From a virus (taxonomy: Duplodnaviria > Caudoviricetes), in IMG/VR virus record IMGVR_UViG_3300044846_003573: a stretch of 64,000 nucleotides of DNA; one strand, given 5' to 3'. The notes beneath the pieces are model-generated. The model worked only from the letters and a program-made list of their open reading frames with translations, did not search any database and was not told the DNA's origin. Both the position numbers and the translations under genes were made by a program. Numbering within the stretch: the stretch's first letter is position 1; each line of letters starts with the position of its first letter. Shown here piece by piece: positions 54,018 to 56,942 of the stretch.

Positions 54018-56942
54018 ATGGCTCAACAGAATATAAATCAGTTCAATTTTAAAAAGTGGTATGTTAAACCTGTCCCAAAAATTTTTGACATTTGCTTAGC
54101 ATCAGATGAAAAAGATTATAACGAAGAAGTTGTATTTTCAACTAATCTTATTGGTTATAATGATGGTAATAGATTACCTATTTATTTTGATTTAAACAAT
54201 CCTTTATCATCACAAGAATTAACAATTAATTATGGTGATTTTTTATCAGGTAACACTTTAGTTTCATTAAATTACTACAATCCACTAAATGAAGATTTAA
54301 ATTGTTTAACGGCTTCTACATTATGTGATATTGGGTTAACAGGTATCGATAATGGTTTAGTTCCACAGATGACTGGTGAAACAATTAATTATACAATGGG
54401 ATTATTTACCGGGTCGAGTAAGTGGGATAGATATCATTTTGATAGAAGAACAAAATTATTTCAAGTTACAGGTTATACAAATCCTCCAAACGAAAGATTT
54501 TCAGGAAACACAAAACAAACTCTGTATAATATGGTTTCAGAATCAGGTTATACTATAACATATTACAATCAATTATATGGTGGTTTTTACCAAGGATTCT
54601 TTAGTTTGTTTGGGTATGATTACGAAACATTCCCAAATAGAACAAACGAAGGGTGGACTGTTGAGATGTTGATTAGACCAAGGTATGTTGATGAATTTTA
54701 TCCAACAAATACTCAAACAACTTTAAACTTAACATATCCTGAAAATGAAAACACTTTTTTCTATTTTGGAGCAAGAGCTGAAAATAAATTTTATCATCAT
54801 GCGTCAGGTTCACCTGTTTCAGATAGTGGGTATACAAGAGTTACAAGTGTTTTAAGTGGATGTTTAGAAACTTGTGCTTGTTCAAACACAGGAGTGACCA
54901 ATTCAAGATGTATTGAAGTATATGAACCTTTAGTTTATAAAGCTCAACATAATACCGATTGTAACTGTGGATGTAACGCAACCACACAAGTTCCAAATAG
55001 TGATAAAGACCCACTATACGACTCAATGTCAAACTCGTTTTCATTGAGATTGTCAGGTGACCCTAAAAATCCAAAAGTTTGTGTTAAAGTATTAACATTT
55101 ACAGGAGGTTGTATTACAACAGGTACTTGTCCAACAACAGGAATTACATATCAAACAGGTTATACTATCACAGAATATTGTTCATCAAATCAAATTTTTG
55201 ATTACTGTGAAGATTTAAATTCTGATTATACAACAAAAGAACATTGGATTTTAGTTGATTGTGTGTGGGAAAGAAGTACTTATTTTGATACTTGTGATTT
55301 ATATTACAGAGGAGGGTTAGGATTAATTAGTGACACAGAATATGTTGATAGTTTATCTAATAATACGGTATTATTAATTGAACCACCAATAACACGTACA
55401 GGGTCAACACCTGCTGAACAAGTAGAAATAGTTAATCTAAATGAAAGATGGTTAATTGAAAGAGAAGATAGATTGGGTGTTTTAAAAATTTATATTAATG
55501 GAAGATTATTCTATGTAATTAATGGATTTGAAGAAGTTATTCCAAGAGCATTAAATACAGAAAAAGAAAAACAATTAGGTGTACCATTTAATATTTCATG
55601 GGGTGGTGGGACACAAGGTTTAAGAGAAAGTTTAACTTTTACAGGATGTCCAACAACCTTAACAGGGTTGACATACATGCAAGACCCTGAGGTTATGCCA
55701 AATCAAACATTGTCAGGAACTTCATTATCAGGTTTAACAACCAATATACTATTAGAACCAACATTTGGTGGTACATTTGACGGGGCAATTTCTCAATTTA
55801 GAATGTACACGGAACCATTGAGTTATCCTGAGGTAATACATAATTTTGACATTTTAAAAAGTCCGTTTTTACTTTTTGATTATGGATGTCCTGACTGTTC
55901 AGACGGATTGATTAACGATATTTGTTTATTAGTTTCAGGTAATAATCTTACTGTTACCTCAACTACTTTTGCCGATAGAACATTTAATTTATATTATGAA
56001 GTTTCAGAATCAAATCCAAGATATTTGATTACATCAGGTCAGACATTTCCATTTACAGTTAACAATACTACAATACCTAATTGTTGTTATAATAACTTTT
56101 ATTTACATTTAATTGAGGATGACCAAACTTTAATATTAACTTGTTTTGACCCAAGTAGACCAACACCAACACCGACACCTACCATTACACCAACACCATC
56201 AGTTACTCCGACTATCACACCAACACCATCGGTTACTCCAACAATTTATGCATCACCAACACCAACAACAACACCTACACCAACAAATACTGAAACACCA
56301 ACACCTACACCAACAAATACTCCTACCGTAACCCAAACCCCTACTAATACAGCAACTGTGACTCAGACACCAACTAATACTGTAACACCAAGTCAAACCG
56401 CAACAAATACACCAACCGTTACACAAACCCCAACAATAACATCAACCCCAACTAACACACCAACAGTCACCAAAACACCAACGGTAACTCCTACAACTAG
56501 TTTAACTCCATCATCAACACCGGCAGAACCTTTAAAAATGTACGTGATTGGTAATGAAAAAAATAGTGACTGTTCATCATCAAGTATGGTGGTTCAATAT
56601 AGGAATATAAATGGTAATTATGTTAGTCAAACGTTAGGTTCACTTAGTGATATTGGTTATATGACAGTTATATCTTACGCGAGTTACCCACCAAGATGGA
56701 TATCAGGTCCATCATCACCTGATGGGTTTGACTTAATTGATTTAGGAACTTATACATCAACAAGTTGTTATAATTTCCAAGCGACAACATATTGTCATAC
56801 AACCCCACCAACTTTAACTTTAAATTATGTAGATTGTAATGGTGTGAGTCAAACTATAGACTATGCAGGTGAAAGTGTTTATACATTCTCAGCTAGAACA
56901 TTCACCGCAGAAAACAAAATACAAATTCAAAAACAACCTTAA
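54018..56942 (+). CDS. putative virion protein: LamG/concanavalin A-like domain, Cys-rich segments, mucin-like Pro/Thr tract
   Basis: GWTVEMLIRP, LKIYING, FDGAISQFRMYTEPLS; 13 [ST]GxT motifs; PT repeats. Confidence 0.75.
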   Translation: MAQQNINQFNFKKWYVKPVPKIFDICLASDEKDYNEEVVFSTNLIGYNDGNRLPIYFDLNNPLSSQELTINYGDFLSGNTLVSLNYYNPLNEDLNCLTASTLCDIGLTGIDNGLVPQMTGETINYTMGLFTGSSKWDRYHFDRRTKLFQVTGYTNPPNERFSGNTKQTLYNMVSESGYTITYYNQLYGGFYQGFFSLFGYDYETFPNRTNEGWTVEMLIRPRYVDEFYPTNTQTTLNLTYPENENTFFYFGARAENKFYHHASGSPVSDSGYTRVTSVLSGCLETCACSNTGVTNSRCIEVYEPLVYKAQHNTDCNCGCNATTQVPNSDKDPLYDSMSNSFSLRLSGDPKNPKVCVKVLTFTGGCITTGTCPTTGITYQTGYTITEYCSSNQIFDYCEDLNSDYTTKEHWILVDCVWERSTYFDTCDLYYRGGLGLISDTEYVDSLSNNTVLLIEPPITRTGSTPAEQVEIVNLNERWLIEREDRLGVLKIYINGRLFYVINGFEEVIPRALNTEKEKQLGVPFNISWGGGTQGLRESLTFTGCPTTLTGLTYMQDPEVMPNQTLSGTSLSGLTTNILLEPTFGGTFDGAISQFRMYTEPLSYPEVIHNFDILKSPFLLFDYGCPDCSDGLINDICLLVSGNNLTVTSTTFADRTFNLYYEVSESNPRYLITSGQTFPFTVNNTTIPNCCYNNFYLHLIEDDQTLILTCFDPSRPTPTPTPTITPTPSVTPTITPTPSVTPTIYASPTPTTTPTPTNTETPTPTPTNTPTVTQTPTNTATVTQTPTNTVTPSQTATNTPTVTQTPTITSTPTNTPTVTKTPTVTPTTSLTPSSTPAEPLKMYVIGNEKNSDCSSSSMVVQYRNINGNYVSQTLGSLSDIGYMTVISYASYPPRWISGPSSPDGFDLIDLGTYTSTSCYNFQATTYCHTTPPTLTLNYVDCNGVSQTIDYAGESVYTFSARTFTAENKIQIQKQP
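56151..56522 (+). repeat. low-complexity Pro/Thr repeat (~124 aa; TPTPT, TPTVTQ, TPTN)
   Basis: ACA/CCA-rich degenerate tandem repeats. Confidence 0.92.

Follow-up and report, generated by a model that had tools for sequence, protein, structure and literature searches.

The tetrapeptide [ST]-G-x-T (serine or threonine, glycine, any residue, threonine) is strongly over-represented in a few proteins encoded on a 64,000-nucleotide stretch of the virus record IMGVR_UViG_3300044846_003573 (Duplodnaviria; Caudoviricetes), in the following called the window. Our results establish that this is a coupled, hydroxyl-requiring and lineage-specific tetrapeptide which lies on probable outer parts of the virion and which has been gained and lost on conserved folds. 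This pattern fits better to a linear functional motif than to a folding requirement. Tentatively, we suggest that the motif could be the acceptor for a glycosylation carried out by phage-encoded enzymes, a reading which we regard as possible rather than probable.

The motif in the proteins of the window

In a previous, sequence-only reading of the window the motifs had been counted by hand in four proteins: a protein of 974 amino acids (aa), a 498-aa protein, the major capsid protein (MCP) and a 62-aa open reading frame (ORF). These counts are exact and the listed tetrapeptides match (Table 1). The motif had also been described as restricted to these putative virion proteins. Strictly this is not the case, because two further single copies occur in the ORFs 34274–34537 and 34503–35129. 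The reported absence of the motif from PolB, the ClpC-like ATPase, TerL, the portal protein and the helicase fragment could be reproduced (0 in 3199 aa), yet it means little alone, because only 1.2 motifs would be expected in these five proteins.

The excess survives a correction for composition in which the residues are shuffled within each protein. Residues 1–712 of the 974-aa protein contain 13 motifs versus 1.09 expected (p<5e-5), the 498-aa protein 8 versus 1.07 (p~1e-4) and the MCP 4 versus 0.83 (p=0.008), and the 62-aa ORF is not significant alone (2 versus 0.5, p=0.08). When the four proteins are pooled, 27 motifs are found versus 4.6 expected from composition (Poisson p=9e-13), and the remainder of the window has 2 versus 6.5. 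In this phage and its relatives the over-representation in a few probable surface proteins amounts to 5–12 times the expectation from composition. An unbiased scan of all gapped patterns with two or three fixed residues (~7000 patterns) placed SG.T and TG.T at ranks 1 and 2 in the 974-aa protein and SG.T at rank 1 in the 498-aa protein, with a pooled p of 1.8e-9 for SG.T over the ~7000 patterns. Therefore, the motif is not an artefact of post-hoc choice. The 95 glycines of the two main proteins, that is, the 974-aa and the 498-aa protein, were also used as anchor points: 40 follow Ser or Thr, 26 have Thr at +2, and both conditions hold for 21 versus 10.95 expected (Fisher 4e-6). In the same test no enrichment was seen for Asn or Asp before Gly, nor for Ser, Val or Ile at +2. 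The three fixed positions are coupled, and [ST]GxT is a true motif, with Ser or Thr at position 1, a free position 3 and Thr at position 4.

A cause at the DNA level was rejected, as the codons vary (TCA, AGT, ACA, ACT, ACG; GGT, GGA, GGG) and x is free; Ser codons from both families are used at the motif sites. Because the codons vary, the signal is at the protein level without a fixed DNA word. A shared hidden domain or repeat was rejected as well, since the flanks are not conserved and the motifs of the 974-aa and 498-aa proteins are not repeat-borne. D[ST][AILVMT] and N-x-[ST] sequons are not enriched, and NT.T is enriched within the Pro/Thr linker of the 974-aa protein only.

All motifs of the 974-aa protein fall within residues 77–673 (nucleotides 54246–56045), starting at nucleotides 54246, 54372, 54468, 54501, 54543, 54825, 54888, 55137, 55155, 55398, 55662, 55728 and 56034. 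The protein has a weak Laminin_G_3 match (E 0.007), and a search of a protein atlas likewise points to LamG. At least 13 invariant cysteines lie within its N-terminal 630 residues (e.g. C286, C288, C298, C315, C317, C319). The Pro/Thr linker of ~120 aa is devoid of the motif, and many homologues, whose lengths range from 550 to 1170 aa, lack the C-terminal part or have another one in its place. In this architecture the protein is reminiscent of an exposed adhesin whose tip can be exchanged. An AF2 model of residues 1–712 is unusable (pLDDT 47). For the 498-aa protein a model of moderate quality (pLDDT 67) was obtained, which shows a string of beta-sandwich domains, and fold searches returned only generic Ig/FN3/macroglobulin-like matches and uncharacterised myovirus proteins. 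At this moderate confidence, the eight sites lie at a helix start, in loops, at a helix end and just before strands (two of the eight). As these contexts are varied, the sites do not form one structural class.

In the MCP the motifs start at residues 185, 216, 337 and 346 (span 185–349), all of them inside the insertion. The site at residue 337 is the sole MCP site conserved among relatives (60/65); it is not conserved in the capsid proteins of the phages immuto, Mel-JY01 and GAP32, and the aligned residues of T4 are NGST. Homologues of the 62-aa ORF adjoin the 498-aa gene in three related loci (L052, L056, L076), which suggests that the product of the ORF is a small protein, either structural or a decoration protein, and that its gene has moved in the present genome.

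Further enriched proteins are encoded on the remaining contig, namely a 361-aa fibre-region protein (8 versus 0.85 expected), a 987-aa protein (6 versus 1.2), a SprB-repeat protein (9 versus 3.0) and the 1063-aa tail sheath protein (5 versus 1.6). All five sheath copies are located at residues 283–673, N-terminal to the conserved sheath core (781–1051). The contig proteins outside the enriched set have ~19 motifs versus 22 expected, and a giant protein of 2035 aa as well as the replication enzymes are at or below expectation. Of the earlier proposal of a glycosylation system that coats capsid and tail, the location of the motif on probable outer virion parts (MCP insertion, sheath N-terminal to the core, fibre-region proteins) is supported. 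That the 974-aa and the 498-aa proteins are present in the virion, we infer.

Table 1. Motif-bearing proteins and glycosylation-related genes of the window
Feature	Position	Strand	Remarks
N-terminal ~711 aa of the 974-aa Cys-rich, weakly LamG-like protein	54018..56150	+	all 13 motifs of the protein
Pro/Thr-rich linker and C-terminal domain of the 974-aa protein	56151..56942	+	0 motifs versus 0.9 expected (shuffling)
498-aa multi-Ig-like protein, late structural block	26077..27573	-	8 motifs
gp23-type MCP with lineage-specific insertion	21258..23108	+	Pfam Gp23 5.8e-73; 4 motifs
62-aa Thr/Gly-rich ORF	9385..9573	+	2 motifs
Lineage-core GT2 glycosyltransferase	32401..33222	-	Pfam Glycos_transf_2 5e-10
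Lineage-core GT-B (GT4-like) glycosyltransferase	33212..34270	-	PDB 8xsg match E 5.4e-9
Variable nucleotide-sugar and glycosyltransferase island	35857..48854	-	Pfam

Lineage, conservation and turnover of the motif

The window corresponds to C1:54453-118452, minus strand, of a single-contig virus record of 155,988 bp with a GC content of 30.7%. The completeness of the record is 52% (CheckV), and since complete relatives with direct terminal repeats have 321 kb (G002) and 355 kb (G005), with other relatives rated complete reaching up to 413 kb, the record is about half of the genome of an uncultured aquatic jumbo myovirus. Besides the gp23-type MCP, the window encodes a gp20-type portal protein, TerL, a ClpC-like ATPase and PolB. 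The closest isolated capsid proteins are those of Flavobacterium phage immuto and Microcystis phage Mel-JY01, together with that of an uncultured 484-kb phage (42–47% identity over about half of the length). For the 974-aa and the 498-aa proteins, tblastn against 50,697 phage records gave no match in isolated phages. The list of core genes (ClpA/C-like ATPase, PhoH, sigma factor, dUTPase and several core glycosyltransferases) is similar to that of the published ‘moraphages’, which are predicted to infect Bacteroidota (PMC12619734). Possibly the lineage is the ‘moraphage’ group, and from this likeness and the SprB repeats found here the host phylum is likely to be Bacteroidota. One 242-kb contig (L161, IMGVR_UViG_3300032116_014939) carries a copy of the 361-aa protein that is 99% identical and may hold much of the missing half of the genome.

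The motif is specific to this lineage of ~320-kb jumbo phages and is not generic. As controls T4, GAP32, Mel-JY01 and immuto were analysed with the same ORF caller as the genomes of the group. In these four phages the proteome-wide ratios of observed to expected motifs are 1.0–1.7 and no protein falls below p=1e-3, whereas three proteins of the present genome and four of G002 fall below ~2e-5. After masking of collagen-like runs, 3 proteins of the present genome, 3 of G002, 11 of G006 and 3 of G007 remain below 1e-3, versus 0 in each control. The sheath orthologues of the four group genomes have 5, 5, 6 and 2 copies, those of immuto 2, T4 0, Mel-JY01 0 and GAP32 3. In G006, which like G007 is a whole genome from a distant clade (see below), the enrichment is strong on other proteins, including the sheath (6 versus 0.68) and the orthologue of the 974-aa protein (4 versus 0.30). 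In addition, this genome (L255-L274) contains a paralogous family with recurring F-S-G-C-T and C-T-G-L-T contexts (278241-279806, 82041-83315, 149281-150135), which by its sequence looks like BspA-type leucine-rich repeats, typical of Bacteroidota surface proteins. G007 (L275-L293) encodes giant collagen-like proteins (1080-4103, 329122-332193, 182392-184206) with 20–64 T-G-x-T units. The triplets are of the GATGPTG type, Thr occupying the Y position, and they are broken up by globular domains, which are found repeatedly within a given protein. SprB repeats may carry the pattern too. Such repeat-borne instances are structural, and they do not account for the sites of the 974-aa, 498-aa and 361-aa proteins, the sheath and the MCP.

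The two main proteins belong to families of at least ~3,400 and at least ~1,560 homologue clusters (90% identity) in public metagenomes. On average the homologues of the 974-aa protein (n=120) contain 9.8 motifs versus 1.2 expected and the close homologues of the 498-aa protein 6.0 versus 0.74, whereas permuted control patterns occur 0.3–1.4 times per sequence, as compared with 6–10 times for the motif. Seven sites of the 974-aa protein are present in at least 75% of the covering sequences. Near-fixed sites in close relatives are SGYT (120/120), TGYT (119/120), TGIT (116/120) and TGLT (120/121), at which Ser and Thr interchange at position 1, Gly and Thr are fixed and x is often a conserved hydrophobic residue. 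Common sites, which make up most of the excess, number 8 and 13 versus 0–2 for the permuted controls. Thus, among close relatives conservation rather than free dispersal is observed. Of the earlier description of the motifs as dispersed with a free third position it can be retained that they are not tandem and that x is free overall, but most of them occupy conserved positions, often with a conserved hydrophobic x.

In the wider families the motif is gained and lost. The 361-aa protein has 8 copies versus 1 in the G002 orthologue (43% identity) at alignable positions; the G002 residues opposite the motifs are NNTS, SAMT, PGGS, KEVS, SGVS, TAYT and GDGT, the TGLT of the 361-aa protein being aligned to KEVS or SAMT, with intermediate states in intermediate relatives. 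When 1.84 billion representatives were searched with a profile, 768 members of the 498-aa family were found. At the lineage-fixed sites of this protein the motif is present in at most 5/108 distant members, except for an ancient site at residue 223 (23/108). TGLT-244, for example, is found in 120/121 sequences of the lineage and in at most 5/108 of the wider family, and at several sites the distant members have Lys/Asp/Glu, Thr or a hydrophobic residue at position 2 and not Gly. One clade, a cluster of 22 representatives, has 0–1 copies and another 2–8, and clades place the motif at different positions, such that in one rich clade only 8/33 instances are at the sites of the present protein. 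On a maximum-likelihood tree of the family the labels rich and poor need at least 13 changes on well-supported branches, including a sister pair with 4 versus 0 copies (99% support) and a 0-copy protein that is sister (96% support) to a pair with 8 and 7. Since orthologues lose the motif, sites differ by clade and at least 13 supported switches are needed, the fold does not need the motif, which has arisen repeatedly. An obligatory structural turn would be kept at the same positions in orthologues of the same fold; this is not what is found in the 498-aa and 361-aa families.

In five related loci (L054, L055, L062, L070, L081) the orthologue of the 498-aa protein is down to 1–2 motifs and that of the neighbouring 527-aa protein is up by 3–5 (26077-29177 in the window). 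Without a correction for phylogeny, a negative correlation is found between the counts in the two neighbours (Spearman -0.36, p=0.0025), and there may be compensation between adjacent virion parts.

These data bear on a purely structural role of the motif, in which [ST]-G would form a tight turn or beta-bulge and x-T would start the next strand, with x buried and Thr exposed and no modification at all. In this reading the beta-sandwich surface domains of the lineage would simply favour such a solution. It is a serious rival because the copies are mostly conserved with a hydrophobic x, because the sequence is a classic hairpin sequence and because no glycosyltransferase covaries with it (see below). 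The flanks show a weak preference for Leu at -1 and for Leu/Val/Tyr/Ile at x and alternating patterns downstream, without extended conservation. The same order, that is, a hydrophobic residue, Ser or Thr, Gly, x and Thr followed by a strand, is known from the 3:5 beta-hairpin with G1 bulge, as in L-T-G-K-T of ubiquitin. The strong conservation of many sites, x included, the two modelled sites in front of strands, the mild excess in unrelated phages and the presence of the motif within known structural repeats of some proteins would all agree with a structural role. Nevertheless, the G1-bulge hairpin is a purely structural element of low frequency everywhere, which leaves unexplained why the motif is specific to one lineage and why it comes and goes on conserved folds. 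Same-fold orthologues lack the motif and have the non-turn residues KEVS, SAMT and TDLT in the same columns; Asn and Asp, the commonest turn formers before Gly, are not enriched, and the beta-rich virion proteins of the four other T4-type phages have no comparable enrichment. The varied contexts of the modelled sites point in the same direction, at the moderate confidence of the model. We consider a purely structural role, the main rival, as rather unlikely.

The motif could also be a by-product without function, arising from an amino-acid or mutational bias of the lineage in fast-evolving Thr/Gly-rich surface regions together with shared ancestry. The proteins are indeed Thr-rich, counts in homologues are not independent and the motif was first picked by eye. 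On the other hand, composition is accounted for in the shuffles, in the unbiased scan and in the Gly-centred coupling test, the permuted patterns stay far below the motif, gains occurred independently at different sites in different clades, and the use of both Ser codon families leaves no fixed DNA word. These controls have largely refuted this explanation, and we regard it as very improbable.

Glycosyltransferases and the sugar island

The window encodes two glycosyltransferases (GTs) that belong to the core of the lineage, the GT2 and the GT4-like protein of Table 1. The latter (ORF 33212) has no Pfam match but matches 8xsg, a solved glucosyltransferase structure (PMC12159676), and clusters of the GT1/GT4 family (Glycos_transf_1 atlas neighbours). 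Both genes are part of a late block (25117-35853) with the order 498-aa/527-aa/640-aa/120-aa/245-aa/GT2/GT4-like/87-aa/208-aa/PhoH. The 245-aa protein has no Pfam match and has homologues in immuto (1e-18) and Mel-JY01 (1e-15). This strictly syntenic arrangement is shared by the present lineage and a distant clade. Among 80 related loci (first set) the gene order is kept wherever the flank is long enough, and the genes beyond PhoH vary; the core GT2 is 54–95% identical wherever the flank reaches it. In the phage records searched above, the core GT2 has only ~22% matches, in Gram-positive phages. The position of two GTs between a putative late sigma factor and genes of the baseplate region is unusual.

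PhoH is located between the core GTs and the sugar island. According to Pfam the island comprises RmlD/RmlC-like proteins, epimerases, a methyltransferase, a GDP-mannose 4,6-dehydratase, a DegT fragment, a hexapeptide acyltransferase, a RXYLT1_C-like protein, GT17, GT2, a UDP-GlcNAc 2-epimerase and a GT2_5+GT4 protein. The DegT/DnrJ/EryC1 aminotransferase ORF (41399-42007, 202 aa) matches best to profile positions 166–241 of 360 and may be truncated or split. After the last GT of the island a dUTPase/dCTP-deaminase-like gene and a PolB-exonuclease-like gene follow on the same strand (48851-50130). The content of the island differs among relatives, and it is mostly missing in G002, G006 and G007.

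The sequence-only reading had tied the motif to a 19-kb GT operon. The cluster of sugar and GT genes is real, but the link is not specific: of the 18 island and core genes, a homologue search found three in G002, namely both core GTs and the GT2_5/GT4 protein of 545 aa, and no dehydratase, aminotransferase, acyltransferase, methyltransferase, GT17 or other island gene. As G002 keeps the motif on orthologues and lacks most island genes, the motif is not tied to the 19-kb island. In a second set of 80 loci from a distant clade the orthologue of the 498-aa protein has 0–2 copies, and most loci with enough flank retain the GT2/GT4-like pair in synteny. Since the core GTs persist in clades in which the orthologues of the 498-aa protein and the MCP have 0 motifs, there is no simple covariation. 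Relatives devoid of GTs were not found: all first-set loci with sufficient flank, and most of the second set, keep the pair. The pair is absent from the four controls, a contrast that represents a single phylogenetic split and is confounded by phylogeny; immuto has two unrelated GT2 genes. Pfam GT2 counts are 5, 4, 4 and 3 in four close relatives (three of them incomplete), whereas five complete genomes from the distant clade have 3, 1, 2, 2 (weak) and 0. This difference is suggestive only.

A possible acceptor of phage-encoded glycosylation

How could the motif function? We suggest that [ST]-G-x-T is a short, linear motif with a function, which selection creates again and again on those parts of the virion that face outwards, and that it would there be the acceptor for a cytoplasmic O-glycosylation of Ser/Thr by phage-encoded GTs. 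The GT2 and the GT4-like protein might prime or extend the glycan, the strain-variable sugar island would supply and diversify it, and glycans would thereby coat the capsid insertion, the outer sheath domains and the fibres. An O-glycosylation acceptor is the most economical reading because the phage encodes several GTs, two of which are core genes in the late block, and because the NTxT sequon of chloroviruses provides a precedent. That a GT acts on protein, which of the GTs would do so and which residue would be modified, we infer.

In the chlorovirus PBCV-1 the major capsid protein Vp54 is glycosylated at the atypical sequons NTGT, NTET and NTAT (PMC9614988). As proposed here, the cytoplasmic glycosylation machinery is encoded by the virus and includes a GDP-mannose 4,6-dehydratase, the target is the capsid surface, and the motif is virus-specific and has four residues, of which the third is free and the last, at +3 from the acceptor, is Thr. 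On the contrary, the chlorovirus acceptor is Asn, carrying N-linked Glc, and position 2 is Thr, whereas in the present motif position 1 is Ser/Thr and position 2 Gly; moreover, the glycans of this eukaryotic giant virus are experimentally proven, and the phage case is known from sequence alone. The MCP of the phage contains 0 N-T-x-T sequons. In mycobacteriophages phage-encoded GTs decorate capsid and tail proteins by O-glycosylation (Freeman et al. 2023, as summarised in PMC12619734). In that case the capsid and tail-tube subunits carry the glycans on extensions of their C-termini, and a short sequon is not defined (PMC12619734), whereas the tetrapeptides described here are internal and dispersed. 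Among the virion proteins of the phage the MCP was inspected in this respect; it has an ordinary C-terminus without a Ser/Thr-rich extension.

Sequon-like motifs are also known from bacteria. The general O-glycosylation system of Bacteroidota modifies exported proteins in the periplasm at D-(S/T)-(A/I/L/V/M/T). It resembles our case in that a short motif is found on many unrelated proteins, and the likely host belongs to the same phylum. Nevertheless, D-[ST]-[AILVMT] is found 151 times versus 140.5 expected genome-wide and 2 versus 4.0 and 1 versus 2.1 times in the two main proteins. In the BclA protein of Bacillus anthracis collagen-like G-x-T repeats are O-glycosylated on Thr. Here, too, Thr is two residues after Gly, and relatives of the phage encode giant collagen-like proteins with 60–64 T-G-x-T units; however, in such proteins the triplet repeat trivially produces the motif, and the 974-aa and 498-aa proteins are devoid of repeats.

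Several points weigh against an acceptor of glycosylation. The sequon is putative, and the computed results contain no evidence of a glycan. We know of no O-glycosyltransferase with [ST]GxT specificity, and to our knowledge strict sequons are rare among bacterial O-glycosyltransferases. The GTs could act instead on glycans of the host envelope or on DNA. A member of the thymidylate-synthase/hydroxymethylase family was not found in the half genome at hand, which is uninformative for the phage as a whole. Rare sites show no excess in the 498-aa family and a ~2-fold excess in the 974-aa family, most of the excess residing at conserved positions with a conserved hydrophobic x, which resemble a structural core. 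Both core GTs are retained in clades whose 498-aa protein and MCP are devoid of the motif, unrelated phages have a mild excess of 1.0–1.7-fold, G007 has little enrichment beyond its collagen-like repeats, and some instances lie within structural repeats (collagen G-x-T, SprB, apparent BspA-type).

A linear recognition motif might also be read by something other than a GT, for example, in phosphorylation, cross-linking, docking of a decoration or cement protein or of an assembly chaperone, or binding of a ligand on the host surface. The motif is functional, labile and biased towards the surface, evidence which names no reader, and the genome also encodes a ClpC-like ATPase. Nevertheless, no candidate enzyme or partner could be identified, and the requirement for the Ser/Thr hydroxyl together with the abundant GT genes makes glycosylation the simpler explanation. 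Thus, we regard a different reader as improbable.

The sequence-only reading had stated that no description of such a system was known. The [ST]GxT sequon itself was indeed not found in the literature searched, but O-glycosylation of mycobacteriophage virions (as summarised in PMC12619734) and the chlorovirus NTxT sequon (PMC9614988) have been reported. Going one step further, one may speculate that widespread aquatic jumbo phages have a general virion O-glycosylation system, in which an [ST]-G-x-T sequon would be read by the GT2/GT4-like pair of the late operon and the glycan elaborated by strain-variable islands, with sequons being gained and lost on capsid, sheath and fibres. In this full form the proposal is doubtful. 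If true, a short O-glycosylation sequon would have been defined for a phage for the first time.

Should the motif be a sequon, glycosylation sites of phage virions would be predictable from sequence alone, and a concrete target could be named for the sugar islands of environmental jumbo phages, which are large and variable. For glyco-engineering, the motif would offer a compact tag for O-glycosylation in the bacterial cytoplasm. The turnover of the motif would then be evolution of the glycan coat and could affect host recognition, stickiness or grazing. Even if it is not a sequon, a four-residue motif which arises time and again on conserved folds within a single lineage of viruses is an unexplained signal of selection.

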